Source of the DNA: Candidatus Nomurabacteria bacterium
GTDB lineage: Bacteria; Patescibacteriota; Minisyncoccia; Phycocordibacterales; UBA9973
DNA length: 64,000 bases
Direction: 5' to 3'
Assembly (NCBI GenBank): GCA_943354905.1
Contig: CALRDL010000001.1
Location: forward strand, 29,520-93,519
This document shows positions 7,859 to 60,050 of the stretch, one piece after another (the first letter of the stretch is position 1; every line of letters begins with the position of its first letter). The position numbers and the translations under genes were made by a program. The notes under the pieces were generated by a model. That model ran no database searches. It was not told the DNA's origin and worked only from the letters and a program-made list of their open reading frames with translations.

Positions 7859-8015
7859 AGATCTTTATATTATTTATTGTATCCAATACAACCCCAACTA
7901 GAAGCAAAATAAAATAAACCGAGTAAGAATGGGCTAGCAGGTGGTGTACAGTATGCTTTTTTGTACTTTCGTCCTTCATGGCTTGATTATAACATAATAA
8001 ATTATTTGATTTCAT
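7830..8015 (-). pseudogene. Duplicated 5' fragment of the ICMT-like gene (pseudo-N-terminus)
   Basis: ...KKHTVHHLLAHSYSVYFILLLVGVVLD is about 80% identical to residues 8-40 of ORF 4778-5245. The DNA at 7880-8000 matches 5130-5250. Confidence 0.5.
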
Positions 8016-8016
8016 A

Positions 8017-8047
8017 CACGGGTGAGGGCTTTAGACTCTCACTGAGG
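8017..8047. repeat. REP-like palindrome overlapping the RAYT stop codon
   Basis: Sequence cacgggtgagggctttagactctcactgagg. Its reverse complement matches the CTCAGTGAGAG-TCTAAAGC-CTCTCACTGAG consensus. Confidence 0.6.
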
Positions 8048-8713
8048 CAATTCATCTGGCTCTTGCAATGAAGTACAGCCTCGTTCTTCTCGAATAATAG
8101 ATATTATTTCTTTGCAATGTTCTTTTAAATTATTTTTTCCTTGAAAAACTTCCAACATGCTCTGCCCTTCTTTTTTAGAAACAAAGTTAAAAAGTCCACT
8201 ATCATATTCCTTATCACTAGAAAATATAAAATGAAGCTTACTTTTCGGCATATCATGTACTAAATAATTTTGATTGACATACCCAAATGTTTTTCTAAAA
8301 TAATTATCGTTTTTAATTAATTTAGATTTAAATGTTCCTTGAAATAAAGAACCTGAACGCTTATTTTTTTCATTAAAGTAAGAAGTATACCCGCCTTGGA
8401 ATTTTTGCATAAATTTTGATATCCCACCATCTACTAATTGTTTTAAAAGAAAATGAAAATGATTTGGATTAATACAAAAAGCAACAATAGCAACAAGTGG
8501 TTCTTTCTTGATTCGCGGGTGAGGTTCTAAAGCCCTCTCTGAGATAGACTTGTAGTACATTTCTAAACTTCCTATCGCCTCAACTTGATTAAACTGTTTT
8601 ATACTTTCCTTAAAGCGTTCCAGATCTTTCAGATCACCGAAAATATCACGCTTATCTACACCTCTATTATATATATGATAATACTCCCCTGTTACGAGTG
8701 GCTCTTTTCTCAT
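8039..8713 (-). CDS. REP-associated tyrosine transposase (RAYT, IS200/IS605 Y1-transposase-like)
   Basis: YHIYNRGVDKRDIF is near the N-terminus. The HuH motif NPNHFHFLL is present, followed by the region GGYTSYFNEKNKRSGSLFQGTFKSKLIKNDNYF, which resembles the catalytic-Tyr segment of the RayT family. Confidence 0.7.
   Translation of the reverse strand: MRKEPLVTGEYYHIYNRGVDKRDIFGDLKDLERFKESIKQFNQVEAIGSLEMYYKSISERALEPHPRIKKEPLVAIVAFCINPNHFHFLLKQLVDGGISKFMQKFQGGYTSYFNEKNKRSGSLFQGTFKSKLIKNDNYFRKTFGYVNQNYLVHDMPKSKLHFIFSSDKEYDSGLFNFVSKKEGQSMLEVFQGKNNLKEHCKEIISIIREERGCTSLQEPDELPQ
8515..8552. repeat. REP-like copy inside the RAYT coding sequence
   Basis: Sequence cgcgggtgaggttctaaagccctctctgagata. 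Confidence 0.5.
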
Positions 8714-8727
8714 ATATTTAGTATATC

Positions 8728-8758
8728 ACAATGAGAGTCTAAAGCTCTCACTGAGATA
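8728..8758. repeat. REP-like palindrome upstream of the RAYT start
   Basis: Sequence acaatgagagtctaaagctctcactgagata. Confidence 0.6.
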
Positions 8759-9333: not shown

Positions 9334-9364
9334 CTAGTGAGGGTCTAAAGCGCTCACTGAAATA
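9334..9364. repeat. REP-like palindrome
   Basis: Sequence ctagtgagggtctaaagcgctcactgaaata. Confidence 0.6.
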
Positions 9365-19935: not shown

Positions 19936-21033
19936 CTACCTATTCATCGGCATTATAAGATAAGTAAAAGATGGATCATTCACAGGAGAAACCACTATCG
20001 GCCCAGAGGCTAGAGAAAACTTAATAGACATACTATCTGTGGTAATGGATGGAAAACAATCCAAAAAATATTTATAATTAAAACCAAGCTCTATATTGTC
20101 TCCAGTAAGTGAAGCATCTAAATGTGTCTTATTTTCTCCAACATCGTTGTTGGCGGAAGAAAGTTCAAAAACTTTTTCTTGCGGAGAAATTTTTAAATTA
20201 ACTTGATTAAACTTATTAGAAAATATATTTGAGATTTTTAGAGCATTTAATAAATCTTGTTTCAAAACAACAGCATTTGTACCTGGATTTTTAGGTATTA
20301 TTTGACGATAATCTGGAAAAACCCCATCTATAATTCTAGAAGTCAAATAAAGATTGTCGGAAGAAAATGAAATTTGATTTTTATTAAAACACACCTTCAA
20401 AATTCCATTAAAATCTCCAAATATCCTCATAATTTCAGGAATATTTTTAAAAGGAATGAGTATACCTGAGATTTCAGGAAGATTTTTGATTTTTATTTTT
20501 TTCTCTGCCAGTCTAAAAGAATCTGTGGAAACAAAAACTAAATTTTCTTCATTTGTATAAATAAAAACACTAGATGTCTCTGGTTTTATATCTGAAACTG
20601 AGGCACTATAATATACTGATTTTATACCCTCGATTAATTTCTTAGAATCCATTTCAAAACTAACTCCTTCTACCCTAGGTATGGTAGGAAAATCATCGTG
20701 TGGTTGACCTTTTAATTTTATTTTACTTTTTTTAGCTGTAACCAAAAGATTGCCATCCACACTCTCAAGAAAAATATTTTCATTTTGGATAACGTTTGAA
20801 AATATACCTCCTAAAACTGATCCAGATATAGCTACGATCCCTTCTTTTTCTACTTTAGCTGGTATCTCAACTTCAATACCTAGACTTAGGTTAGTAGATC
20901 TTAGTTTTAAAGATTTATCAGAAGCAATGAGAAGTATAGAACTCAAAACAGGCAAAGTTAGATTCTTCCCAGTAATTCTCTCAACTTGAGAAATCTTATT
21001 TTTTAATTCTTCAATTTTACATTCGAGTTTCAT
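19936..21033 (-). CDS. dnaN: DNA polymerase III beta sliding clamp
   Basis: 365 aa. The N-terminus MKLECKIEELKNKISQVERITGKNLTLPVLSSILL is typical of the beta clamp. Confidence 0.85.
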   Translation of the reverse strand: MKLECKIEELKNKISQVERITGKNLTLPVLSSILLIASDKSLKLRSTNLSLGIEVEIPAKVEKEGIVAISGSVLGGIFSNVIQNENIFLESVDGNLLVTAKKSKIKLKGQPHDDFPTIPRVEGVSFEMDSKKLIEGIKSVYYSASVSDIKPETSSVFIYTNEENLVFVSTDSFRLAEKKIKIKNLPEISGILIPFKNIPEIMRIFGDFNGILKVCFNKNQISFSSDNLYLTSRIIDGVFPDYRQIIPKNPGTNAVVLKQDLLNALKISNIFSNKFNQVNLKISPQEKVFELSSANNDVGENKTHLDASLTGDNIELGFNYKYFLDCFPSITTDSMSIKFSLASGPIVVSPVNDPSFTYLIMPMNR

Positions 21034-21292
21034 ATGTTTATATATTATATATTTAAATTTATTAATACTATTAGTAACCTTGATAAGTGGATAAGTGGAT
21101 TTTATGTTTATTAAATAAGATTATTTTTAATATTTTTTATTTAATTAAAATCTAATAAGTTTGGGTATGAAATTATTTTTTGTTTATTATTTTATTTCTT
21201 TGGTTTTTTATTAGATTTAATTAACATTTTTTCTAACACTTTTCCACATTTTTTCTGCACTTATCTCTGAGTTTTCAGATAGTTGTAAACGT
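21034..21292. promoter_or_regulatory. AT-rich dnaA-dnaN spacer with DnaA-box-like repeats (oriC candidate)
   Basis: gataagtggataagtggat contains two TTATCCACT boxes in tandem. ttttccaca is a further box. Long AT runs are present. Confidence 0.4.
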
Positions 21293-22642
21293 TTATTTAA
21301 ACATAATTCTGATTTGTTCTAATTCTTGTAATAATTGCGGGTCATCTTTTAAGTCGTTTTTTATTTTTAAACATGAATGAATGACTGTGGTGTGGTCTTT
21401 CCCCCCTAGTTTTTGTCCAATGAGTGGATAAGAAACATTGAAATCTTCTCGTAGAAGATACATAACCACTTGTCTAGCTTTGACTATCTCCTTTTTTCTA
21501 GTTTTTTCATAAACAGACTCTTCTTCTAGTTTATAATACTCACTAACCATCTTTACAACATCTTTGATAGCTATGTTTTTCTTTGGTCGCATATTGTTCT
21601 TTAGAAGATTTTTTACTTCAGCCAGTGTGAGAGGTTTATTTCTAAGACGATATTGGCAGACTATTGTATTTAAACTCCCTTCAAGTTCTCGAATACTGCC
21701 ATCTATTGTAGAAGCTATGTATTCTAGGATTTCTTGATCTAGCTCGATGTTAAATTCCCTTAACTTAACTTTCAAAATGGCCAAACGAGGCTCGTATTCT
21801 GGTGGAGATATGTCTACTATCATTCCTGCAGAAAAACGCGTTTTCAAGCGATCTGCGAGCTCTGGGATGTAGTTTGGGTGCTTGTCTGAAGAAAATATAA
21901 TTTGTTTATTGTTTTCATGGAAAGTATTAAAAGTATGAAACAATTCTTCTTGAATTTTTTCCATTTTTCCAATAAATTGTATATCGTCAATAATAAGAAG
22001 ATCATATTTTCTATATTTTTCTTTGAAAGAGTTCGCTTTATTATTTTGGAGAGAGTTTATAAAATCTGTAGCGAACTTCTCTAAAGTCATATAATGAACT
22101 TTTTTATTTGGGTGTTTTTCTTTAATTCCGTTCCCCACAGCTTGAATAAGGTGGGTTTTACCGAGTCCAGTCGGACCATAAATGAAAAAAGGGTTATATT
22201 TGGTACCCGGGTTTTCTATTATGGCTTGGGCGGCGGCATATGCTAATTCATTAAAAGAACCAACAATGAAAGAATTGAAGTGATATCTAGGGTTTAGGTT
22301 GTCGTCTGGATTGATATATAAGTCTTTTAGTGGTAATTCTTTATTTACATAAGGTTCGTTTGTTGTTGGAAGCATTTCTTCTTCTTTATTATTTTCTATT
22401 TTTATAATGATGTATTCCACCGCTCGCATATTCTCATAAGCATCAGCGATGGTCTTGGTGATAAGTTTGTGGTATTTGTTTATAAGCCAGTCGCGAACAA
22501 ATTCATTTGGTACTCCAATATAAATAATACCCACATCTTCTCTTACGATTGATGTGTTTTTAAACCAAGTGCTAAAGTTGGCTTTTGACATACCAGCCTC
22601 AATCTCTACTAGACAGTTTTTCCAAAGCTGTTTTATATTCAT
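21293..22642 (-). CDS. dnaA: Chromosomal replication initiator DnaA
   Basis: GPTGLGKTHL Walker A, AAA+ domains and the C-terminal DNA-binding domain. Confidence 0.95.
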   Translation of the reverse strand: MNIKQLWKNCLVEIEAGMSKANFSTWFKNTSIVREDVGIIYIGVPNEFVRDWLINKYHKLITKTIADAYENMRAVEYIIIKIENNKEEEMLPTTNEPYVNKELPLKDLYINPDDNLNPRYHFNSFIVGSFNELAYAAAQAIIENPGTKYNPFFIYGPTGLGKTHLIQAVGNGIKEKHPNKKVHYMTLEKFATDFINSLQNNKANSFKEKYRKYDLLIIDDIQFIGKMEKIQEELFHTFNTFHENNKQIIFSSDKHPNYIPELADRLKTRFSAGMIVDISPPEYEPRLAILKVKLREFNIELDQEILEYIASTIDGSIRELEGSLNTIVCQYRLRNKPLTLAEVKNLLKNNMRPKKNIAIKDVVKMVSEYYKLEEESVYEKTRKKEIVKARQVVMYLLREDFNVSYPLIGQKLGGKDHTTVIHSCLKIKNDLKDDPQLLQELEQIRIMFK

Positions 22643-31771: not shown

Positions 31772-32134
31772 TTACTCATTTGCCATTCTTGATTTTACGG
31801 TTTTCTGTATTTTTCCTATTATTTTTAGTATTTCTTCGCAGTCATTAAAAACAGGAGAAAGTTCTTCTTGAGTCATGTATTTCGCTTCTCTTAATAGAGA
31901 AAGCCAATATTTTGTTTCTCGAGCTTCTTTGTAGGCTATGGATAATTTTGAGATGAAGTCTTTTTTCGATTGACCACCTAGTGCTTCTTCTATGTTTGCA
32001 CCGATTGATGTTCCACTTCTTAAAAGCTGTTTAGATAAAATAAATTCTTTTTTTATTCCAATTAAATATTTATATAATTCAATAATTCTTACTGCAAATT
32101 TATAGCTTTTTTGTTGTATTATGTTTTCTTTCAA
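31772..32134 (-). CDS. Four-helix-bundle protein (23S rRNA intervening-sequence protein family)
   Basis: QLLRSGTSIGANIEEA...AYKEARETKYWLSLL. Apparent TTG start lying within the heptad repeat. Confidence 0.55.
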   Translation of the reverse strand: MKENIIQQKSYKFAVRIIELYKYLIGIKKEFILSKQLLRSGTSIGANIEEALGGQSKKDFISKLSIAYKEARETKYWLSLLREAKYMTQEELSPVFNDCEEILKIIGKIQKTVKSRMANE

Positions 32135-33211: not shown

Positions 33212-35806
33212 CTAATGATGCGCACCTCCGCCTCCGTGAGAAGTATCTTTTTTGACTTCTGTTGCGCTAGATAGATCTACATTAATTTTAACACCCTTTA
33301 AGGACTCAGTAATCAAACTACCAATATCTTTTAAAGCATTTCCTTCACCTTTTCCATAGTTTACATTTAGTTGTTTAAATCCAGCACGCAAACCTATCGC
33401 AAGCCCTGCAGTCATCATTGTAGCAACTTTAGCCAATGTTTTGCTATTTGTTTTAGCTACCAGTTCCGCAATATTTCGTATATCGTAATTTCCACCTGTT
33501 GAAGCTGCAGTTACTCTTTCTCTTATACCTACCTTTTCTTTTGCTTCGTTTGCTATGTGACCAAACCTATTTTTAGCTATTACTTCAGACAATTGTCTTA
33601 ATCTTTCATTCCATTTATCGTTTAATGTTTCTAAAACTATAGATTCTCCTTGTTTAGTCAAGTCAAGAGTTATAGGGTCTACCATACCTGGCATAGCCCT
33701 TACACTTGTTTCAACAGCTGTACGTTTATTTGTTCTAAACTGGCTCTCAGTTTCCATTGGTATTCCTGTTCTTGGGTCAATCAGTACCCTACCTTTTTCA
33801 TCAGAACCTCTCTTTACATCTTTTTCTATTTGAGGACGATTTTCTTTAGCAAAGGTTTCTAGCATTTTACTATCTTGCATACCACTGAGTCTATCATTGC
33901 TTACTCCTTCTGCTCCTACTTTTTTCTTTAGTTCATCCCACTCAGTTGTAGCATGAGCAGTTTCCTCTCTTTTTAATTGAGCGGCATTTATTCTTCCACC
34001 TATTCGGTCTTTTAAATTGGTAGGAGCAGTAATTGTTGATGTATAAGTTTCTAATTTTGGTTTAGCGCCTCGTCCAGCTCTTGGAGTACTCTTCCAGCTA
34101 TTCAAGTCTTTGCTGAAGTTTCCAGATGCGGTACGATATTCTTTACCATATTTTAAGGCCTCAGTACTTCTTGAAAAACCAGCTACAGTAGATCCGATAC
34201 CTTTTCTCATGCCTGCTGCAGCTAAAAGACTAGCACCACCTAGGGCTAATCCTCCAACTACTCCAACTGCTTTCATCGCACCCATAGCCACTTCTGCAAA
34301 TTTTCCTCCTCCCTTTTTTGCGAAATCAGTTGCTTTCATTAGAAGTATTAAAATGAAAAGTGCTGGAATTATGATAAACAAAACTGTTTCCATAGTGGAA
34401 GCTTCGGCAGGATTTCGCATCAATCCACTAAATATATTTGCATTTATCAATCTAAATATAAAATATAAAAAGAACATAAATATCGGGGCCATAAAGGATA
34501 CCTCGATCAATCTTTTTAACCAAGAATCCCATCCTACATACTCTATTCCAGCTAATTTAGGCAAGGATAAAGACATAAACGCAAAAGGAGAAAATATTAT
34601 TAAAAGCCAGAGTTCTATGAGTCTTCCGAGGAAACTTATCCCAGCAATAAAAAATGCGTATGTGGCAAAAAGCATTATCGCTCCAGAGATTACGATCATA
34701 CCAAACAGTAATGCTATCGGTACTTCCTTACTCGGTATAAAATAATATACAAGACCCCCCACCGCACCAATCACCGCACCAGGTACCGCACCAATCCCAG
34801 CAAATGGTGAACCAGCAGCTGCACCAGCAGCTGCACCAGTCCCAGCACTAGCTAACACACCAGCTGTAGTTGCCTCAGCTATCGTATCTGTTCTTTTTTT
34901 TGCATTCTCAAAGAATTCGTTCGACAATAATTTCCCCGGATTAAAAGCATTTACCATACCACCCGATATATCTTTTTCTGTTCCGGTATTTGTGGCTGGT
35001 AAATATGCTTTCTTTACTCCATCTACGGTCGTCTCGGTGTTTATTTTATTATAGAAAATTAGGGCAAGAACATTTGAAGTGTCTATGACAATTTTCGTAA
35101 AGAACATTGAAAAGTTGATGAGTAATGCCATGATTATAACTTGAACCACCATCTTTTTTGCGTGGTCACTTATACCAAGTATAGTTTGAATACCTACATA
35201 TAATAAGATAAGAATAAAAAATATATTGGAAAGATCTCGGACTACGGCCCAAGCTGTGGGTATAAAAGTAGAACCACTAATCATTTTACCACTTAAGGTT
35301 AATGCCACAATAGCATTAAAAAACATCGCCGAATAAGTGAGCAAAAAAGATGGTAAGACATTCAGAAGAAAATAAGATATTTTGACTAAACATCCTGCAA
35401 TATTTGGAATAGGAAATATACAATCTGGTAGGTTGTTTCCTATACCAGTGTCGTCTGGGGGTTTGTCTGCCACTTTCTCACCCCCTCCTTCAATTGCATT
35501 TCCAATAGTACCAGGTGTCAAAAACCTTACAGTGGACGAACCAGGTATGTTTCCTGAGGTACATTCACCTCGCTTTCTTTGATCTTCCATGGGGTCTCCC
35601 CTGCTATTGGTCCAAGCACATCTTCCCATTTGATTAGGATCTGCTGGTGCTGGTGTCTGTGCCTGTGTTTTAGAAAAATACCCAACCCCCCCAGCTAAAA
35701 CCAGAATCAAGAGTAGATATGGAATTATCCTAGTAGTAGAAAATAGCCACATTTTTTTGGATGGTATTTTCACTACGGGGATTGTTTTTCTAAAATTTGA
35801 ATTCAT
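33212..35806 (-). CDS. VirB6/TrbL-like polytopic membrane protein of the type IV secretion system
   Basis: 864 aa. Signal anchor, at least eight predicted transmembrane helices, a Gly/Ala-rich segment and a long charged C-terminal domain. Assigned by architecture and context, not by a motif. Confidence 0.5.
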   Translation of the reverse strand: MNSNFRKTIPVVKIPSKKMWLFSTTRIIPYLLLILVLAGGVGYFSKTQAQTPAPADPNQMGRCAWTNSRGDPMEDQRKRGECTSGNIPGSSTVRFLTPGTIGNAIEGGGEKVADKPPDDTGIGNNLPDCIFPIPNIAGCLVKISYFLLNVLPSFLLTYSAMFFNAIVALTLSGKMISGSTFIPTAWAVVRDLSNIFFILILLYVGIQTILGISDHAKKMVVQVIIMALLINFSMFFTKIVIDTSNVLALIFYNKINTETTVDGVKKAYLPATNTGTEKDISGGMVNAFNPGKLLSNEFFENAKKRTDTIAEATTAGVLASAGTGAAAGAAAGSPFAGIGAVPGAVIGAVGGLVYYFIPSKEVPIALLFGMIVISGAIMLFATYAFFIAGISFLGRLIELWLLIIFSPFAFMSLSLPKLAGIEYVGWDSWLKRLIEVSFMAPIFMFFLYFIFRLINANIFSGLMRNPAEASTMETVLFIIIPALFILILLMKATDFAKKGGGKFAEVAMGAMKAVGVVGGLALGGASLLAAAGMRKGIGSTVAGFSRSTEALKYGKEYRTASGNFSKDLNSWKSTPRAGRGAKPKLETYTSTITAPTNLKDRIGGRINAAQLKREETAHATTEWDELKKKVGAEGVSNDRLSGMQDSKMLETFAKENRPQIEKDVKRGSDEKGRVLIDPRTGIPMETESQFRTNKRTAVETSVRAMPGMVDPITLDLTKQGESIVLETLNDKWNERLRQLSEVIAKNRFGHIANEAKEKVGIRERVTAASTGGNYDIRNIAELVAKTNSKTLAKVATMMTAGLAIGLRAGFKQLNVNYGKGEGNALKDIGSLITESLKGVKINVDLSSATEVKKDTSHGGGGAHH

Positions 35807-35839
35807 TATGTTTTTTTAACTTGACATTTCTTTTCCATT

Positions 35840-35885
35840 TGTTAGTATGTATATATTCAGACGAAAAGGGATCCGAACGGCTAAC
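35840..35885 (-). terminator. Hairpin plus T-tract downstream of the NYN gene
   Basis: On the minus strand: aagggctccttaggtagttagccgttcggatccctttt. Confidence 0.4.
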
Positions 35886-35888
35886 TAC

Positions 35889-36425
35889 CTAAGGAGCCCT
35901 TTTCTTTTTTAGCTCGATCTTTTCTTTTATATGATTGTTTTCTAAATAATCAAAATATTCGGATCCTAATTTTTGATATAAAGAAGAAGCAAATTTTCTA
36001 TCAGGAAATAATATTTTTTCAAATTTATTTTCTTCAATCAAAAAATCCACCAACATTTTATAATCTCCATCACCTGAAACCAAAATAATCTTTCCAAAAT
36101 CCTCTTTTTTATACAAACGCTTCATTGCAGAAAAAATAATATCAGAATCAACATTTCCCTTTTTTAGTCCAACCATAGCTTCACTATGTTGTTTGAATAC
36201 TATAATAAAACCAGCTTTTTGTATTTTTTCATATAAATCTTGGTATTTTTTATCTGTATATCCGAGATGGTAGTATGCTCTATCAACATTATACTTTTTT
36301 TCTAAATAAATTCTAAAACGACCCAGTTCAATTTTCCACGGATCAATATCTTTTTTTGCTGTATTCATATACAGATTCTGTCCATCTACAAAGGCAATAT
36401 TTTTATTTTCTTTTTCAATCATCAT
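35889..36425 (-). CDS. NYN-domain (LabA/PIN-like) ribonuclease family protein
   Basis: IAFVDGQNLY...DVDSDIIFSAM...ILVSGDGDYKMLV, the acidic residues typical of NYN domains. Confidence 0.6.
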   Translation of the reverse strand: MMIEKENKNIAFVDGQNLYMNTAKKDIDPWKIELGRFRIYLEKKYNVDRAYYHLGYTDKKYQDLYEKIQKAGFIIVFKQHSEAMVGLKKGNVDSDIIFSAMKRLYKKEDFGKIILVSGDGDYKMLVDFLIEENKFEKILFPDRKFASSLYQKLGSEYFDYLENNHIKEKIELKKKRAP

Positions 36426-36429
36426 AAGA

Positions 36430-36572
36430 TATTATATCACAACCTCATCCCAAAAATCCCAGCCAAAACCAGAATCAAGAGTAGATATGGGATTATCCTA
36501 GTAGTAGAAAATGACCACATTTTTTTTATTGATGTTTTCACTACGGGACTAGTTTTTCTAAAATTATTTTGC
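36430..36572 (-). repeat. Copy 2 of the VirB6-like 5' leader module (45-codon pseudo-N-terminus plus upstream region)
   Basis: Encodes MQNNFRKTSPVVKTSIKKMWSFSTTRIIPYLLLILVLAGIFGMRL, to be compared with the VirB6-like start MNSNFRKTIPVVKIPSKKMWLFSTTRIIPYLLLILVLAGG. Confidence 0.7.
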
Positions 36573-36665
36573 ATTTTATCTTTTTTACCTCATTTTTTGA
36601 ATACTTATTTTATTTTAACATTATATTGACAAAAAATCTTCTTAATATATACTTTATTAGTCATT

Positions 36666-36695
36666 AGAAAACGCCGGCCTGTACGGCGTTTTCCT
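36666..36695 (-). terminator. Rho-independent terminator-like hairpin
   Basis: aaacgccggcctgtacggcgtttt followed by a T-tract. Confidence 0.5.
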
Positions 36696-36699
36696 TTTT

Positions 36700-37305
36700 C
36701 TAGACATCACTCTTGATTTGCATCTTCCAGTCATTTATATCAATAAAAAATACTTGATTTCTTTTTTCTGCTACTAAATTTCGCAACTTTAAAGAAAGTC
36801 TCGAAGTAAAGTATCTAGGAGCAGTTCTTATTTTCTTGGCACTTGAAATTATATAAACTTTTACACCTTTCTCGACTACATTGCGAGCCAGATATTCAAA
36901 ATCTCCATCGCCAGTAAAAAACAAATACCCCACATTTTTTTCTATTTGATTTATTACATCAACAGCAAATTCTACATCACAATTTGATTTCCACTTTACT
37001 CCCCTACTTACTTTATGAGTTATTCCTGTGTTGCAATTAGGGCATAAAATTTTAATAATCTGATCTTGATTTTTGTAAATAAAATATGGTTTTGCGTGTA
37101 CGGTATATCCTAACTTGGACAATTCTTCGTATTCTGAAGCTTTAACATTATCACCATTTTGAATACCAGAATAAAAAAATATCTTTTCACAGTTCCATTT
37201 TTCTCTTAAATATTTAAACATTTTTTTCCAATCAATCACAAAACCAAGAAGCTGATTAGTAGTGCTTTCTGTGTTCTGTACATCAATAAATGCGTATCGT
37301 TTCAT
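36700..37305 (-). CDS. NYN-domain protein with an inserted zinc ribbon
   Basis: YAFIDVQN...CPNCNTG...WKSNCDVEFAVDVI...FFTGDGDFEYL. Confidence 0.55.
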   Translation of the reverse strand: MKRYAFIDVQNTESTTNQLLGFVIDWKKMFKYLREKWNCEKIFFYSGIQNGDNVKASEYEELSKLGYTVHAKPYFIYKNQDQIIKILCPNCNTGITHKVSRGVKWKSNCDVEFAVDVINQIEKNVGYLFFTGDGDFEYLARNVVEKGVKVYIISSAKKIRTAPRYFTSRLSLKLRNLVAEKRNQVFFIDINDWKMQIKSDV

Positions 37306-37344
37306 AATTTTAATTTTATATCTATACGTTCTCCCTTTATATAA

Positions 37345-37500
37345 ATCCCCCAGCTAAAACTAGAAATAAGAGTAGATATGGGATTATTCTAGTAGAAGAA
37401 AATAACCATATTTTTTTTATTGGTGTTTTCACTACGGGGATTGTTTTGCTAAAATTTGAATTCATTTATTTTCTTCGTTTTATTATAGCATTAGTTATAT
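37345..37500 (-). repeat. Copy 3 of the VirB6-like leader module with a consensus -10 box
   Basis: Encodes MNSNFSKTIPVVKTPIKKIWLFSSTRIIPYLLLFLVLAGGFI. Preceded on the minus strand by gctataataaaacgaagaaaataaATG. Confidence 0.7.
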
Positions 37501-37527
37501 GAATTTAGCTGTGTATTTTATTTTTGT

Positions 37528-37556
37528 TTGACATTGTTTTTAATTTCTACTATACT
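37528..37556 (+). promoter_or_regulatory. Consensus sigma70-type promoter: TTGACA, 17-nt spacer, TATACT
   Basis: ttgaca at 37528-37533, then a 17-nt spacer, then tatact at 37551-37556. Confidence 0.5.
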
Positions 37557-37562
37557 ATGCGT

Positions 37563-37647
37563 AGGTGTTTGTAGGGTTCGCCCTCTTACGGCACTAAGCT
37601 GTTAACAAACACTCACAAAGAACCCACCTTTTTGGTGGATTTTTTGT
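37563..37647 (+). ncRNA. Candidate ~85-nt small RNA with its own promoter and an intrinsic terminator
   Basis: An internal stem (gtgtttgt...acaaacac), then the terminator cccacc-tttt-ggtgg followed by ATTTTTTG. Lies in the 3' flank of ORF 37650-38126. Confidence 0.35.
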
Positions 37648-37649
37648 TT

Positions 37650-38126
37650 CTAATCTTCTTCCGGGTTGCCATCATGAAATATTCTAGTCATTGTTTCTCT
37701 ATTCATTCCCCAAAATGGAATAATACTCCAGAAAATTCTTTTACCATCTTCTATTTGTTTTATAATAATTTTAACCCTATTTCTTTTAATTATCGCTATA
37801 AATTCATAGTACGTGACATTTTTTAGGATTTTGTCCAGCCTACTATGAACTTTTATGTGTTCAAATTTTTTCGTTTCCCATATTCCTTGTAAGCTAGATG
37901 ATATTTTTATGACTTCGGGTGCTAAATTTATGAGTTTGAAACGCATATATTGATCTTGTTCCAATCGTGATTTTCCTCGATATTTATATTTTAAATGTTC
38001 AAGCCCTTGAGCATTAAATGCTATTTTTTCCTTAAAATATGGACAATAAACTTCCGTAATGGATTTATAAAAGGATTCTCCATTTATTTTAATTTTTTCA
38101 AATTCTTCATTACTAAATTTTAGCAT
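37650..38126 (-). CDS. Hypothetical protein (158 aa) preceded by a truncated leader copy
   Basis: No family recognised. Confidence 0.35.
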   Translation of the reverse strand: MLKFSNEEFEKIKINGESFYKSITEVYCPYFKEKIAFNAQGLEHLKYKYRGKSRLEQDQYMRFKLINLAPEVIKISSSLQGIWETKKFEHIKVHSRLDKILKNVTYYEFIAIIKRNRVKIIIKQIEDGKRIFWSIIPFWGMNRETMTRIFHDGNPEED

Positions 38127-38215
38127 ATTTTTTTTATTGGTATTTTCATTACGAGACTAGTTTTTCTAAATTCTAAGCTCATTTATTTTCTTCGTTTTAT
38201 TATAGCATTAGTTTT
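38127..38215 (-). repeat. Copy 4 (truncated) of the VirB6-like leader module
   Basis: Encodes MSLEFRKTSLVMKIPIKK. Shares the promoter gctataataaaacgaagaaaataaATG. Confidence 0.6.
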
Positions 38216-38218
38216 TAA

Positions 38219-39376
38219 CTAACTTCCAAGAAAGTCTGTGTAATTCTCTACTGTAATAACCTTAAAATTGATCTGGAGATTCTTGTTGGTCTCGATAAAT
38301 ACTTTCGGAGTTTTTTTCTTCTGCATATTATTAAGAGTAAATTCATAAACATCAGCATTTTGATTCCACTTTTCAATATAATCAATCTCTTTACCCTCGA
38401 TATTTCTCCAGAAGAACGTTTGATACAATTTTCCATTGTACGCGTTACTTTTAAGTTTCTCTATGATGGCAAAGTTTTCAAACAAGTTGCCGAGATCTCT
38501 GCGCATTAAACCATTTTTATTAATGTTTGTTTCTGTAAAATCATTGATTATGGCATTACGAATACCGAGGTCGTAGAAATACAGCTTGTTCTTTTTACGT
38601 ATTTCGGTGCGGAGATTGTTGTTATAACTTTTCAGTCTAAATACAACAAATGATTGTTCTAATAGATAAATATATCTTTGTATTGTCTTACTACTCGTTC
38701 CCAATTCTTTACTTATTTTATTTATACTAATTTCATTACCTATTTGATAAGCGAGTGTGCGGAGTAAATTTAGCAATATTTCTGGTTTTTTTAGATTTTC
38801 AAATTTAAGAATATCTTTGAGTAGAAATGATTCAGCTAGATTTTTAACTTTGGCTATTTTCTCTTCGATGGTGCCCTGCAGGATGACTTCTGGATAGCTA
38901 CCAAAACGGAGTATGTAATCGAGATGTGTTGTGGGGTTGAAGTATTCAGAATTCCTGATTTCATAGTCGGTGAGTGGGTACATATTAAGTAAAATATTTC
39001 TACCCATTAACGGCTCTCCGATTTGACCAGCAAGTTCGAAAGAGGATGACCCTGTTACTACAATTTTGAGGTTTGGGTAGGCATCGATAATGATTTTGAG
39101 ATTTATTCCGATATTTTTTATATTCTGTGCTTCATCGATAAACAAGAGGTCGAGGTCCTCGACATGTTCTTTTAGTTTTTCTAGTCTTTGAGATGAAAAT
39201 ATTTCTTGGGTAGTTATACTATCACCAGCATAGACTCTATACTTGTCTTTGAATTGCTCAAGGAAACTATTTATTATAGTTGTTTTACCTACCTGTCGTG
39301 GACCATAGATGATCAAAACCTTACCGTTTTGGACAAAGCTTCCGATGTCTATTTGTCTTTTAACTAAATTCTTCAC
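38219..39376 (-). CDS. AAA-family ATPase (COG1373-like, ATPase domain plus DUF4143-type C-terminus)
   Basis: Walker A GPRQVGKTT, Walker B LLFIDEAQ, and a C-terminal winged-helix-like region. Confidence 0.65.
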   Translation of the reverse strand: MKNLVKRQIDIGSFVQNGKVLIIYGPRQVGKTTIINSFLEQFKDKYRVYAGDSITTQEIFSSQRLEKLKEHVEDLDLLFIDEAQNIKNIGINLKIIIDAYPNLKIVVTGSSSFELAGQIGEPLMGRNILLNMYPLTDYEIRNSEYFNPTTHLDYILRFGSYPEVILQGTIEEKIAKVKNLAESFLLKDILKFENLKKPEILLNLLRTLAYQIGNEISINKISKELGTSSKTIQRYIYLLEQSFVVFRLKSYNNNLRTEIRKKNKLYFYDLGIRNAIINDFTETNINKNGLMRRDLGNLFENFAIIEKLKSNAYNGKLYQTFFWRNIEGKEIDYIEKWNQNADVYEFTLNNMQKKKTPKVFIETNKNLQINFKVITVENYTDFLGS

Positions 39377-39495
39377 AATATAATTATATACTAAGGTAAA
39401 AAATAAGTCAATATAATTTACCTTTAAGTCATAATTTATGGAATAAAAGGTCAGGTTTTGTATTTTTTCACTCCATAAAACACGAAAATTAATTA

Positions 39496-42400
39496 CTAAT
39501 TTTCATTATTTGTTGTTGGTTCTGTCTGACTTTGTATCCACGTACTACCATTTACTGAATCACAATCTTCCTTTGATACTTCCGATTCGGTGAATTTTTG
39601 TTCAGGAGTGACTGGATTAGAAAGAGTACAAGTACCTAATCTTATTCCAATGTCAGTATCGTTTACGATGATTGGTGCTTCGATGACTGGTGTTAATCCA
39701 GGGAGGTCTTTTTTGTAGTCCACTATCTGTGTATTATAAATAAGATCACAACTTAGTTTCATAGTAGCAGAATGTCCAAATACCCCAAGGGATCCACGCC
39801 ATTTCAATACATCTTTGGCATTTACATAAGGAACATCAGGGTGTGTTACAATTCCATCTGGTTTGTTGCCCAATGCTCTACCTATAAGTATTCCTGGAAT
39901 TATGCCTATTCCTCCGGTGATGGCACCTAAATATCCACCCAGTATTGCACCAAAAGCACCACTACTTCCGTCGTTTTCATGTGTAAAAGATTTATGGTTA
40001 TATCCACCTTTGATCGGTGCATCACAGAATATGTCTTGTTCTGTGCCAGATGTGGTAGGAAATTTATCTGCAATACCAGAAGCAGTAAGGTTGCTATTTG
40101 GTCCACCCTTTTCTTCCCATCCTTTAGCTTTTCTTTCTTGTCTACATTTTGTGACCAAGGCTATAGTTTTTTCGTATTTATTTTTTGCCATACTCAATTC
40201 GTTTAGAGTATTTTCTATAGTTGAACTATTTGAGATAGATATCTTGATCGGGTTGTACTTTTTTCGCAGGTCTACCAGATATTTTTCTTCGTTTGAACCG
40301 ACTTCTGGTTGATCTGTCAATTTATCCAAGTCGGCTTTTATTGACAGCAATCTAGCCAGTGCCTGATTTTTTATTCTCTTACTATCAATAATCTCCTTTG
40401 ATTGTTGATAGAGTGTGTCGATTTCGTCTATGGCGTCCATATAAATTTGGGAATCTCCTAGGGACATTAGCATTTTATTATCGATCCAATCCTTGAAAGA
40501 TTTTACGGCAAATTCTAATTCATTATAGACGAGTCGAGCAGCAGCAGCTTTTTCTCCATTTTGCTCGTTCATTCTTCCCTGTAACTTGCTACTGTTTCTA
40601 TCCATTTCTTCTGTTAATCTATCCTTCCATCCCATGTTTGGTCCTGGCATACACATATCGAGTTCACGTATCTCTGGCCAAGTTTTACTGATCATTTGAA
40701 TGATGCCGGGATCGTTTATAGCGCGATTGTCTATAAGTGCGATTTCTCTTTGGGTGTTTACAATATCTCCGGGGATGTATTTTTTACCATTTCCATCGGT
40801 CCATTCTCCTGGTGGGTAGATTTCATCATTTGCATCTTTTAAGTTTCTACTCACATTGTCACAATCAGCTTTACTGACTTGCACTGTTTTTTCTCGAGTG
40901 CTACATGAACCAAGTCCAATAGTGTTTCTGGTGTCTCCTACTTCAATTACTATTTGTCCTGCAACTGAAACATTTCTTTCTGAACCATCTTCATCTTTTT
41001 CTATTATGCTCCCTACACGTACCCTCTGTGTATATCCATCCAGTTGTTTTTTGAAAACATCCAAAGAGATTTCTTCATCTGGACCAGTGCTCCAAGGCTT
41101 ATTTACGTCATCGTCTGCGACTCCGAGTCTCTGTCCTTCATATTCAAAGTCTTCTTCTACAGGTTTCCGATTTGTCTTAGTAGCCAGAGCATTTAATCCT
41201 TCACCCAAGAATTTATTAAATAAAGCATCAAAAATAGCGGACAATCCAGTAATGCTGTCACCTACTACACTACCAAGTACGGTTTGATCCGCTCTTGCTC
41301 CCATAGCTTTTGCTATCTGATTTGCTATTACAGAACCCGGAGTGGTAGCGACGAGTCCACCTGGACAATTGTTGTTTACATCCCACATTATTTTTTCTAC
41401 TGCACGAGCGTTATTAAATCTTATGGTTTCTGCACGATATCCTGCTTCTCTTTCTGGATCTCTAGTTCCACCACCAGCAAATGTATCATCATCAAAATTA
41501 TACCCTCTAGGGAGAGTTGTTCTATTTCTTTGTGAAGGTGTTGTAGTGGGAGGTAAAGGTAGTCCTGAAGGTAATGTTAAAGGTGGTAATGGAGGTATAA
41601 TATTAGGAGCAGGAGGGCGAGGAGCGACTGCAAGAAGTAAGCCATCAAGAGCAGATGCAGATCCAGTACCTCGTGGTGGTGGTGGAAATGGTGATGGTGG
41701 TAGGTTTACGGGTGGTAATCCTCTCGGTGGGGGTGTTGTTAGATCTGGTGGGGGTGGTAACTCAGGGACTGCAACACTGGAATAATTTTCATTAAACTTT
41801 GTTTTAGGTTGGAAACTTGGCTTCTGAAATTCATTTTTACCATTATTATAATTAGGATTTGAAGGACAAGTTTGCGGAGACAAAAATCCCATACCTTGAT
41901 CTAGGACTTTTTTTACTTTATTTGCACTAGTTTCGACCACACCTTCTAGTTTTCTGGCGAGCCGTTCGGTGGCTAGCATCTGATAACCGATATAATTATT
42001 TTGGGGATACATAGTATTGGTCAAAAATCCATTCCATCCCCCGACGTTAAAATCAGTCCTGTATCTTTGCAATAGTGCTGGGTCGTTTATGACTTTACTG
42101 AGGGTGTATTGTGCGTTGTCTTCAAATTTTTGTTTATAAGATCCTATAATATTTAATGCAAAACCTTTTCCAAAAGGAAAACGATTTGAGTCGTAGCCTG
42201 TCATTGTAATGAAATTCTTGATCTCATATTTTCCTACATCTCGAAAGAAAGATGTTGGATTTTCCAAGAAAAGTGGCGCACCGTGAAATCCAGCGTTGAT
42301 CCAGTTTATTGTACTTTTTGTCATTTCAGCCATGAGCCTTTTATTTACAGTTATAACCATTTGTTTCAATATTGCTATACTTGTCTCTTTAATTTTAAAG

Positions 42401-42600
42401 CCCAGACTTGTTGCATTTACTTTTGCATTTACCTTCCCCGCCACCGCCCCCACCACCGCCGCCTTCGTTGCACCAGGATCACTTACAACTGCTTGAGCAT
42501 GGGATTTTTCAGGTTTTAAAAATAAAAAACTCGGCATTAGTATTGCAATAATTAAAAAAGATGAGATGAGTTTTATAATTTTATTATTTTTAGTTTGCAT
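39496..42600 (-). CDS. Large secreted protein (1034 aa) with a Pro-rich low-complexity segment and a C-terminal Gly-zipper transmembrane region
   Basis: Signal peptide. PPPP..LPP runs at about 41500-41800. C-terminal GAILGGYLGAITGGIGIIPGILIG. Confidence 0.45.
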   Translation of the reverse strand: MQTKNNKIIKLISSFLIIAILMPSFLFLKPEKSHAQAVVSDPGATKAAVVGAVAGKVNAKVNATSLGFKIKETSIAILKQMVITVNKRLMAEMTKSTINWINAGFHGAPLFLENPTSFFRDVGKYEIKNFITMTGYDSNRFPFGKGFALNIIGSYKQKFEDNAQYTLSKVINDPALLQRYRTDFNVGGWNGFLTNTMYPQNNYIGYQMLATERLARKLEGVVETSANKVKKVLDQGMGFLSPQTCPSNPNYNNGKNEFQKPSFQPKTKFNENYSSVAVPELPPPPDLTTPPPRGLPPVNLPPSPFPPPPRGTGSASALDGLLLAVAPRPPAPNIIPPLPPLTLPSGLPLPPTTTPSQRNRTTLPRGYNFDDDTFAGGGTRDPEREAGYRAETIRFNNARAVEKIMWDVNNNCPGGLVATTPGSVIANQIAKAMGARADQTVLGSVVGDSITGLSAIFDALFNKFLGEGLNALATKTNRKPVEEDFEYEGQRLGVADDDVNKPWSTGPDEEISLDVFKKQLDGYTQRVRVGSIIEKDEDGSERNVSVAGQIVIEVGDTRNTIGLGSCSTREKTVQVSKADCDNVSRNLKDANDEIYPPGEWTDGNGKKYIPGDIVNTQREIALIDNRAINDPGIIQMISKTWPEIRELDMCMPGPNMGWKDRLTEEMDRNSSKLQGRMNEQNGEKAAAARLVYNELEFAVKSFKDWIDNKMLMSLGDSQIYMDAIDEIDTLYQQSKEIIDSKRIKNQALARLLSIKADLDKLTDQPEVGSNEEKYLVDLRKKYNPIKISISNSSTIENTLNELSMAKNKYEKTIALVTKCRQERKAKGWEEKGGPNSNLTASGIADKFPTTSGTEQDIFCDAPIKGGYNHKSFTHENDGSSGAFGAILGGYLGAITGGIGIIPGILIGRALGNKPDGIVTHPDVPYVNAKDVLKWRGSLGVFGHSATMKLSCDLIYNTQIVDYKKDLPGLTPVIEAPIIVNDTDIGIRLGTCTLSNPVTPEQKFTESEVSKEDCDSVNGSTWIQSQTEPTTNNEN

Positions 42601-49496: not shown

Positions 49497-49910
49497 CTAT
49501 TCTAAACTAAAATCAATTAATTTTTGTTTTACCAAATCATCTGGAACTTCAAAACCCGGCATATATTCCACCTTTTCTGTGTAGTTGATATCATCAAAGT
49601 AGGCTAATTGATTACGAAAAATTTTCGCATTAAATTCCCCAGCAAAAAGCTCTTCAGCTTTTTGAGATATTTCTTTCACAGTAAAATGATCTTTTAGTAT
49701 AAAATATAAATCAACATAATCTTTCCATTTATTGCGTCTGCTCAAGGCAAATGCCTTCATCGCAGCTAGTGTCAAAAGAGTAGGGAGCTTTAAATAATAT
49801 CCAAATTTTTCTGGATAAGAAATCTCGTAATTAAATTCTTTCAATAAAGATAATAGATTTGATTGTTCTTCAGTTAAAATTTCTTTATGTGATGCTTGAA
49901 TATTTATCAA
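49497..49910 (-). CDS. Hypothetical protein, possibly the C-terminal part of a nucleotidyltransferase-like (AbiEii-like) protein
   Basis: SRRNKWKDYVDLYFIL motif. Overlaps the upstream ORF by 26 nt, suggesting a split gene. Confidence 0.3.
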   Translation of the reverse strand: MINIQASHKEILTEEQSNLLSLLKEFNYEISYPEKFGYYLKLPTLLTLAAMKAFALSRRNKWKDYVDLYFILKDHFTVKEISQKAEELFAGEFNAKIFRNQLAYFDDINYTEKVEYMPGFEVPDDLVKQKLIDFSLE

Positions 49911-59777: not shown

Positions 59778-59978
59778 TAAAAGGTTAAATTTAATGTCTT
59801 TTATTGAAATACCTTTATTTGACAACATATTTTGTCAAAATCTGCTTATAAAAGACAAGATTTTTTATGTCCTTTATAAACATAATTAACATAGTTATCC
59901 ACATCTGCTCGTCTTTCGGTGAGGTTTTGTGAATAATCCTTATTTGACAACATTTTAATAAAGGACAGAGATAGGGTG

Positions 59979-60050
59979 TGCACCCGGAGGGATTCGAACC
60001 CCCAACGACCGCTTCGAAGGCGGATATGATATCCATTTCACTACGGGTGC
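59979..60050 (-). tRNA. tRNA-Arg (anticodon UCG, tentative)
   Basis: The reverse complement GCACCCGTAGTGAAATGGATATCATATCCGCCTTCGAAGCGGTCGTTGGGGGTTCGAATCCCTCCGGGTGCA folds as a cloverleaf. The first anticodon-stem pair is mismatched. Confidence 0.6.

Follow-up and report, generated by a model that had tools for sequence, protein, structure and literature searches.

Background

Toxin-antitoxin (TA) systems of type I that pair a toxin gene with a convergent antisense RNA and a bidirectional terminator include par (Fst-RNAII) of pAD1 and txpA/RatA and bsrG/SR4 of Bacillus subtilis. Genomic islands and integrative elements that target gene ends (those of tRNA, tmRNA and some protein genes) carry a replacement end together with an integrase and a fixed attachment site, and accrete in tandem. 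Patescibacteria have tiny genomes and are host-dependent. Here we analyse a stretch of 64,000 nucleotides (nt) from contig CALRDL010000001.1 of a Candidatus Nomurabacteria bacterium (hereafter the window), in which the 5' segment of a virB6-like gene of a type IV secretion system (T4SS) locus occurs four times, once at the start of its own gene and three times ahead of other genes.

In Rhs, contact-dependent inhibition (CDI) and other polymorphic toxin loci, orphan cassettes carry fragments of the main gene, and recombination between repeats has been proposed as the driver (PMC3482391). Type I TA systems had been reported from just a few phyla (PMC12390103). Divergent VirB6 homologs adjoining virB4 have been reported in Patescibacteria, and the T4SS is reported to be essential in a cultivated member of the group (PMC12102498). 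The array described here could be assigned to none of its closest known counterparts, because it lacks defining features of each of them. With moderate confidence, we read its four copies as one working VirB6-like 5' end and three dead stubs that arose by serial module insertion or recombination. As a landing site, the virB6 start would show how accessory genes enter an essential operon, with the invaded end duplicated or replaced, and the modules are a candidate RNA-controlled toxin or defence set in a group for which almost nothing of this kind has been characterised.

Four copies of one gene start

The sole full-length owner of the repeated segment is a minus-strand gene (33212-35806) for an 864-amino-acid (aa) VirB6-like polytopic membrane protein, the functional 5' end of which is leader copy 1 (35681-35829, minus strand). 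The genes of the array all lie on the minus strand, in the order 1034-aa gene, ATPase gene, copy 4, 158-aa gene, copy 3, NYN2, copy 2, NYN1, and copy 1 with virB6. Copy 2 (36437-36597) and copy 3 (37337-37496) are stubs of the virB6 5' end, each with a short open reading frame (ORF): that of copy 2 has 45 codons (36437-36574) and stops 11 nt before the NYN1 ATG, and that of copy 3 has 42 codons (37337-37465) and stops 31 nt before the NYN2 ATG. Copy 4 (38124-38213) is a partial stub, consisting of an upstream segment with a TATAAT box and the 5' arm and loop of the leader hairpin; it lacks the 3' half and ends at the ATG of the 158-aa ORF, which is equivalent to the internal Met of the leader motif 'KKMW'. 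Full hairpins are found at 35728-35779, 36496-36547 and about 37387-37438 in copies 1, 2 and 3, respectively.

A repeat search returned 149-nt copies at 35681-35829, 36449-36597 and 37340-37488 that are 79-81% identical without gaps, and placed the partial copy 4 at 87% identity to copy 3 across 90 nt. Pairwise BLAST identities were 87.7% over 130 nt (copies 1 and 3), 84.7% over 131 nt (copies 1 and 2), 88.0% over 108 nt (copies 2 and 3) and 86.7% over 90 nt (copies 3 and 4), and a MAFFT alignment also confirmed the four copies, which are spaced 768, 891 and 717 nt apart. Two sub-motifs of the repeat occur exactly three times each in the window, against 0.00 expected from shuffled sequence. 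A preliminary description of this locus, made from the sequence, had stated that the 5' segment is re-used three more times and had set a similarity of about 75% as its bar. These searches bear out the first point, and the copies exceed the bar (84.7-88.0% in the copy pairs compared by BLAST); the 42- and 45-codon ORFs and the truncation of copy 4 are likewise confirmed. The same description had included the upstream region in the repeat unit, but among copies 1-3 the similarity reaches no further than about 4-20 nt upstream of the ATG. Copies 3 and 4, which had been said to share a TATAAT box, do so within a stretch of 35 identical nt that begins 33 nt upstream of the ATG and includes it. At the other end, stubs 2 and 3 lose similarity at one common point, just past GCTGGG (a G-run), at about +128 to +140. 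Because contigs of three other datasets (ERR5863117, ERR3719140 and ERZ27280224) carry the array at 99.97-100% identity, the arrangement is not an assembly artefact.

Autonomous modules behind the copies

The genes behind the copies belong to discrete modules that recur in many contexts and in variable order, accompanied by stubs, conserved promoters and conserved RNA structure, and the 158-aa module is conserved beyond the level of its host genome. The NYN1 module (35821-36430, minus strand) comprises an NYN-domain gene (35889-36425; Pfam NYN, E = 1.4e-15) and a 3' spacer, and its limit is the -35 box of a convergent promoter. The NYN2 module (36626-37311, minus strand) holds an NYN gene with a zinc-ribbon insert (36700-37305; Pfam NYN, E = 9.9e-15) and a 3' spacer, and the 158-aa module (37528-38131, minus strand) a gene with no recognised family or fold (37650-38126), likewise followed by a 3' spacer. 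The assignment of the first two payloads as NYN nucleases and of the third as an unknown protein, made in the preliminary description, agrees with these profile matches: no family of Pfam, NCBIfam, PADLOC or PHROGs matched the 158-aa protein, and its confident AlphaFold model found no convincing structural relative. The three cargo proteins are 158-201 aa long, with an NYN or an unrecognised fold, and none is a hydrophobic peptide of less than 60 aa.

Comparison with loci from other genomes (numbered L005-L185) places sharp limits on the modules. The 158-aa block common to the window and to L128 and L149 is, by BLAST, exactly 37528-38131, and the NYN1 block common to the window and L128 begins at 35821. 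Positions 37528 and 35821 are each the first base of a plus-strand -35 hexamer, and at its opposite end each module stops some 5 nt short of the start codon. Between genomes whose flanking core genes reach 65-74% nucleotide identity, the 158-aa module is 86-87% identical; in L149, for example, it is 86% identical to that of the window, and the flanking UvrD, KsgA, 1034-aa and virB6 genes are 65-74% identical.

Homologs of the modules are numerous and widely placed. The 158-aa family has 688 homologs, 64-93% identical among the matches listed, whose source names range from Nomurabacteria to Gracilibacteria and Peregrinibacteria. For NYN1 there are 3,410 homologs, 66-78% identical among the matches listed. 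Many members of both families lie on contigs of about 1 kb, and families of this size (hundreds to thousands) probably cause many of the contig breaks in Patescibacteria assemblies. Homologs of the 158-aa gene occupy several kinds of site: in L158 they follow mreC, in L180 they lie in an mreC-containing cluster upstream of a TGT gene, in L150-157 they follow a DUF1653 gene, in L170-179 they separate atpG from atpD, and in L149 and L128 they are at the T4SS site. Homologs of NYN1 follow pilB in L160 and precede virB6 in L162-169. The same modules thus occur in unrelated operons (mre, atp and pil) that have no virB6 leader. The proposal of the preliminary description that a single conserved promoter and leader recruits payloads is therefore not upheld, since the modules are autonomous. 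Because they have fixed boundaries and a predicted convergent RNA of their own as well, and sit in operons without this leader, the leader copies are better regarded as by-products of insertion.

A Pfam scan of 40 ORFs of the window identified no integrase or recombinase, and none is present in or beside the array. The sole genes of transposase type, one of the IS66 family and one IS200/RAYT-like, lie more than 25 kb away. Scans of viral contigs for the hairpin and for both small-RNA cores gave 0 matches, and hence no sign of a phage vector. Sequence-string and keyword searches of the literature found no description of the hairpin or of the modules.

Variation at the virB6 start in other genomes

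The possibility, also raised in the preliminary description, that the virB6 5' end is a recombination hotspot whose payloads vary between related genomes is supported by the comparison across genomes. In L128, a 2-kb region contains NYN1, a spacer, a 52-codon hairpin-type virB6 stub, an internally deleted NYN2 (85-90% identical at the nucleotide level to that of the window), a spacer, an 11-codon PemK stub, the 158-aa gene, a spacer, and a virB6 gene that starts without the hairpin (MKKLLPYILII...). The same three modules therefore occur there in another order, and a stub can derive from whichever gene was invaded; a hairpin-type leader piece was imported together with NYN1. In L149, a virB6 stub of about 38 codons precedes the 158-aa gene and an intact virB6, and the flanking repeat is 70 nt long and 93% identical, followed by abrupt divergence. 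In L006 the usual VirB6 start 'MKKFLPY' (7 codons) is stranded before a PemK module, and PemK is found ahead of virB6 in L006, L007 and L140. An NYN1 homolog precedes virB6 without a stub in L162-169, and no module precedes virB6 in L005, L127 and L147/L148. The last three loci have the hairpin-type leader, which excludes the idea that it always travels with modules. What comes before the 158-aa module thus differs between genomes: a virB6 stub, a PemK stub or just the stop codon of the previous gene.

These comparisons bear on whether the array could be an old tandem duplication of a leader-plus-NYN unit that diverged without any mobility. Such a history would predict that two of the payloads share the NYN domain, that the units have similar lengths (768, 891 and 717 nt) and that the arrangement is fixed in the three datasets, as is observed. 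Plain duplication is nevertheless contradicted by the proteins themselves, because NYN1 and NYN2 are only 22% identical and differ in domain make-up, whereas their leaders are 85-88% identical; moreover, the third payload is unrelated, the NYN1 and 158-aa payloads have relatives at other loci of other genomes that are 66-93% identical among the matches listed, and all three payloads recur in another order in L128. We regard this history as very improbable.

Insertion of the modules, which we favour, frequently duplicates part of the target. Flanking repeats measure 90-141 nt in the window, 70 nt in L149 and 35 nt in L160, where an NYN module lies between imperfect repeats of the pilB 3' end, and in each case the target gene is left intact. 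Overall, repeat lengths are 0, 35, 55, 70, 90 and about 140 nt, and they differ for one and the same module between genomes. A variable repeat that is sometimes lacking altogether argues against a fixed attachment site or a staggered cut of the transposase type, and insertions without a repeat rule out a constant target-site duplication, so that duplication of the target is frequent and not obligatory. As in gene-end islands, imperfect direct repeats of the target end flank the insert, the target remains intact and inserts accumulate serially; unlike those islands, the modules are only 0.6-0.7 kb long, carry no integrase, and have repeats whose length and sequence vary or which are absent. The orphan cassette arrays of toxin loci offer a second parallel, in that displaced cassettes lie beside the main gene with a conserved fragment of it, and in that order and content vary. 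Those arrays, however, are located at the 3' end and the cassette becomes the C-terminus of the main protein, whereas here a 5' fragment is repeated and the module is never fused to VirB6, and the modules also occur independently in unrelated operons.

Facing promoters and predicted RNAs

Each module carries, on the strand opposite to its gene, a strong predicted promoter that faces the gene. When 4.1 kb was scanned for plus-strand promoters of the sigma-70 type, the three top-ranking matches fell one in each inter-gene spacer. Behind every one of them comes a plus-strand terminator hairpin, which touches or overlaps the stop codon of the minus-strand gene, giving one predicted convergent RNA of about 40-86 nt per module. 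In the 158-aa module (37528-37648, plus strand; TTGACA-17-TATACT, 11/12), the predicted RNA of about 86 nt would fold into a three-way junction and a terminator (37624-37638), supported by 3 compensatory pairs among seven contexts. In the NYN2 module (36626-36702, plus strand; TTGACA-16-TATACT, 11/12), the terminator hairpin (36667-36693) abuts the NYN2 stop codon, and in the NYN1 module (35821-35912, plus strand; TTGACA-16-TAGTAT with TG), a predicted hairpin/terminator RNA of about 55 nt overlaps the last NYN1 codons. Fold z-scores of the three predicted RNAs are -4.7 (158-aa module), -4.3 and -2.4. The facing promoter and RNA are kept with each cargo type in other genomes: the sequence of NYN1 is conserved beside its homologs in L128, L160 and L162, and that of NYN2 in L128. 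On the gene strand, the modules begin at the ATG without a promoter of their own, and promoter-like boxes precede stubs 2-4. Rfam searches of the window and of 18 hairpin loci (gathering and E-value thresholds) matched only tRNAs and chance hits, and left the module RNAs unmatched.

The layout is consistent with that of type I TA systems in that protein gene and predicted RNA converge on one terminator hairpin, and in that the units are compact, selfish-looking, present in many contexts and sometimes tandem, as are the LDR and Sib repeats of Escherichia coli. It differs from them in that the proteins are soluble, 128-201 aa long and of nuclease type or unrecognised, rather than hydrophobic peptides of less than 60 aa (the hydrophobic stubs being VirB6 fragments), and in that no complementarity to the translation start was found for the RNA of the 158-aa module. 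Any overlap between the predicted RNAs and the module mRNAs would be confined to the 3' end. Pairing of that RNA with the start region of its own gene was considered and rejected, as the predicted duplex was no better than those of shuffled sequences. Type III TA systems have a tandem-repeat RNA upstream on the same strand, whereas the RNA predicted here lies on the opposite strand, downstream of the gene, and is non-repetitive.

A further cargo was found in L006 (2180-2730), L007 (3816-4360) and L140 (395-910), in which PemK/MazF-type genes begin 45-100 nt after a preceding large gene and are followed by a convergent TTGACA-N17-TATACT promoter and a short predicted RNA. Unlike in type II PemIK/MazEF systems, no antitoxin gene lies immediately upstream of PemK in any of the three loci. 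A PemK gene with a facing RNA in place of a protein antitoxin suggests that PemK may be RNA-controlled in these genomes.

A conserved hairpin in the leader

Within the repeat, conservation is highest in an element of the form CCCGTAGTGAAAA-(upper stem plus loop)-TTTTCTACTACTRGGA, which folds into a stem whose 3' arm has two bulged T. The window contains three full copies and one partial copy, all within the leaders. The hairpin also occurs in the 5' coding ends of VirB6-like genes of distant genomes, with upper stems that covary, and a scan of a genome collection detected at least 119 loci, almost all in Patescibacteria and in many classes, the majority of which carry a minimal form of 30 nt, CCCGTAGTGAGCTTTGCTCTACTACTGGGA. 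The variable top of the hairpin has 3.37 consecutive pairs, against 0.61 when shuffled. In one orientation the hairpin lies 6-30 nt upstream of the starts of housekeeping genes (dnaJ, rpoD, infB, dnaX, alaS, hisS, pyrG and ribosomal protein genes), and in the other it forms an in-frame part of topA and of large ORFs that by eye resemble IleRS and GatA. One hairpin is nested within the loop of another in L015, and L113 holds a 43-nt tandem array of hairpins. In L143 (4660-6900), a tandem repeat is made up of the final 66 nt of what by eye resembles an H+-pyrophosphatase gene, a further 12 nt and the hairpin, and copies of this 3' end flank a 1.5-kb insert with an 82-aa ORF and a helix-turn-helix (HTH)-phosphoribosyltransferase-like ORF. 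This arrangement is the 3'-end counterpart of the virB6 5' array. No Rfam family matches the hairpin and we found no paper on it; structured and conserved across the whole group, it constitutes a lead separate from the modules.

Could the hairpin itself direct recombination, as an integron-like or Xer-like site used in trans by a host enzyme, with the modules as captured cassettes? The conserved lower stem with two bulged bases and a covarying top formally resembles attC, copy 4 breaks within the hairpin loop, the distance between the hairpin and the end of the stub is the same in stubs 2 and 3, and the nested and tandem hairpins of L015 and L113, the PemK gene of L006 (bracketed by two hairpins in inverted orientation) and the L143 repeats, each with a hairpin and flanking an inserted segment, would all fit. 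As in integrons, single-gene units of 0.6-0.9 kb that start near the start codon are arrayed with a bulged palindrome of variable top in the repeat. The modules differ from integron cassettes, however, in that each would have a promoter of its own, facing the gene, and ends at its 3' side in a terminator hairpin and promoter, with the conserved hairpin in the leader stub, and no IntI, attI or R-box core was found; the scanned ORFs include no integrase, and core sequences (RYYYAAC/GTTRRRY) are absent. The duplicated segment reaches 26 nt and 40 nt past the hairpin on its two sides, unlike the product of a crossover inside it. Flanking repeats in L149, in L160 and at the 158-aa gene of L128 are free of hairpins, and no hairpin lies close to the modules of L150, L158-L160, L162 and L170-L185; the relaxed hairpin search behind this spanned L149-L169, and the exact-pattern matches included no module-bearing locus. 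The minimal hairpin, moreover, lies mostly upstream of housekeeping genes or in frame in topA and not at cassette borders. Hairpin-directed capture therefore appears unlikely.

Since stubs and repeats form without it in L149 and L160, the hairpin is unnecessary for stub formation, and we treat it as a separate element native to the virB6 start of this lineage. Its use as a marker of cassette borders is ruled out, because most copies precede housekeeping genes. Rickettsia palindromic elements provide one comparison for the hairpin. Another is provided by repetitive extragenic palindromic (REP) elements with their REP-associated tyrosine transposases, or RAYTs (PMC3733652). The leader hairpin resembles both in being a short imperfect GTAG palindrome that occurs between genes and in frame within them. 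It differs from REPs, which are species-specific, in that its lower stem is near-invariant across distant classes of Patescibacteria, and from REP/RAYT systems in that the window has few copies and a RAYT-like gene flanked by another hairpin. This gene, of the IS200-like Y1 transposase type (8039-8713), has 'REP-associated tyrosine transposase' as its best NCBIfam match, below the cut-off; it is flanked by inverted TGAGAGTCTAAAGCYCTCA hairpins (8023-8750), and a third copy of these lies 600 nt away (9338-9356). Action of the local RAYT-like transposase on the leader hairpin is thus unsupported, as the hairpin flanking the gene is a different one.

A tRNA-Arg(TCG) gene (59978-60050) holds the 10-mer CCCGTAGTGA, spanning the end of the acceptor stem and the start of the D-arm, which equals the 5' arm of the hairpin. 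Within the 64 kb this arm is found just in the three leaders and in the tRNA-Arg gene, a match that may be a coincidence or a hint of tRNA-like origin.

How the copies may have arisen

The sequences of the copies, which are more similar to one another than to any foreign leader, point to an origin within the genome. Copies 1-3 share a genome-specific membrane-helix segment that is absent from the seven foreign leaders aligned, which indicates that they were copied from, or homogenised with, the resident gene and were not imported separately. Matches among them are mosaic: in the segment from the ATG to the hairpin, copies 1 and 3 match at 26 of 27 positions and copies 1 and 2 at only 19 of 27; the latter pair agrees at 36 of 38 positions of the helix segment, and copy 4 shares 'CTAGTC' with copy 2. 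This mosaicism implies recombination or gene conversion between copies, and the copies of the window therefore appear to have arisen by in-genome duplication, gene conversion or both.

We propose that a module, consisting of one protein gene (NYN1, NYN2 or the 158-aa gene, and PemK in relatives) and a facing promoter and RNA, with no recombinase, and bounded approximately by its start codon on one side and by the -35 box of the facing promoter on the other, would insert at the virB6 start. The old start would be left upstream as a short ORF or, for copy 4, would donate its ATG to the incoming gene (the copy 4 junction coincides with the ATG and an A-rich microhomology), and a fresh copy of the leader downstream would keep virB6 intact. 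With a stub ORF closely preceding the module ATG, or donating it, the module gene is probably expressed via the start signals of the host gene. Imported DNA may insert by homology-assisted or microhomology recombination, perhaps carrying part of a neighbouring gene; alternatively, a circle bearing the module and a piece of the target could integrate by a single crossover. Conversion among the copies would follow insertion, with no dedicated recombinase involved at any step. The modules would be toxin- or defence-like, and their small RNAs would be made and would restrain the protein, much as antisense RNAs do in toxin/antisense-RNA pairs.

A reading in which the leader copies are kept on purpose, either as small membrane peptides (type I-like toxins or anchors) or as regulatory upstream ORFs of the nuclease genes, draws on the same ORFs. 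Copies 2 and 3 retain intact frames of 42-45 codons with a membrane helix, which stop 11-31 nt short of the following ATG, L143 has three repeats of a unit in which a hairpin with an ATG in its loop is combined with a small membrane peptide, and type I toxins are small hydrophobic peptides that are frequently repeated in tandem. The peptides, though, are simply the first 40 residues of VirB6 with a few out-of-context residues appended; amino-acid changes are about as frequent as nucleotide changes, with 8-9 of 40 residues differing between copies; copy 4 is truncated; the stubs of relatives vary in length (7, 11, about 38 and 52 codons), one of them deriving from PemK; and the modules occur elsewhere with no such ORF. 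Maintenance for a function of their own is, in our view, decidedly unlikely.

Several observations weigh against serial insertion as we describe it. Stubs 2 and 3 end alike before unrelated modules, which random illegitimate joining does not predict and which suggests that breaks favour this point or that cargo is exchanged while the flanks stay fixed. The insertions at L150, L158, L162, L170 and L180 have no flanking repeat, and the array is identical in all three datasets compared, such that no variation is visible within this population. As for function, no fold is recognisable in the 158-aa protein, NYN domains are not among the established toxins, duplex prediction gave no complementarity between the RNA of the 158-aa module and its translation start, and the small RNAs, the stub ORFs and the coupling are predictions.

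A wider proposal, advanced tentatively and as possible rather than probable, is that Patescibacteria harbour a hitherto undescribed class of minimal mobile modules of about 0.6-0.7 kb, each with one nuclease-type or unrecognised gene and a convergent structured RNA, which may spread without a recombinase to gene ends in essential operons (T4SS, ATP synthase, Mre and pilus ATPase), use the start signals of the host gene and sometimes duplicate the invaded end; the leader hairpin could in addition be a new cis-acting signal in RNA or single-stranded DNA.

The host gene and its surroundings

The VirB6-like protein has 369 homologs, all from Patescibacteria and none more than 45% identical, and no Pfam or NCBIfam match (VirB6 and PrgH profiles included). 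Its assignment therefore follows from operon position and from the divergent homologs described in PMC12102498 rather than from a profile match; its operon partners are PrgI (VirB3-like), a TraC-like protein, a VirB4-type ATPase and a T4SS pilin. The 1034-aa gene of the T4SS locus (39496-42600, minus strand) lies directly 5' of virB6 in relatives and thus serves as a marker of the empty site. In the same gap as the array lies a further accessory gene, for an AAA_14/DUF4143 ATPase (38219-39376, minus strand), which matches the PADLOC candidate defence family PDC-S01 (E = 8.5e-121) and has a strong promoter of its own at 39383-39411 (TTGACT-17-TATAAT). It is missing from the syntenic locus L149, whereas L150-156 have, close to their 158-aa module, a distant homolog that is 30% identical.

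Within the T4SS operon, a gene for a 23S_rRNA_IVP four-helix bundle protein (31772-32134) lies between a 289-aa gene and PrgI, and the equivalent slot in relatives is occupied by a GIY-YIG gene (L162-L169, about 7928-8224), so that the operon seems to have a second slot of variable content. 5' untranslated regions (UTRs) rich in 'TAAAGT' (e.g. GTAGAAAGTCATAAAGTTTGTAAAGTAAAATG) and with no obvious Shine-Dalgarno sequence recur before many genes of relatives, examples being L006 2690-2726, L128 760-800 (minus strand), L149 6625-6666 and L162 4660-4702. Elsewhere in the window, the IS66-family transposase gene is located at 2045-2881 and a fragment of an AbiEii-type toxin gene at 49497-49910; both are additional accessory or mobile genes of the window, which is chromosomal and contains dnaA and dnaN (19936-22642) as well.

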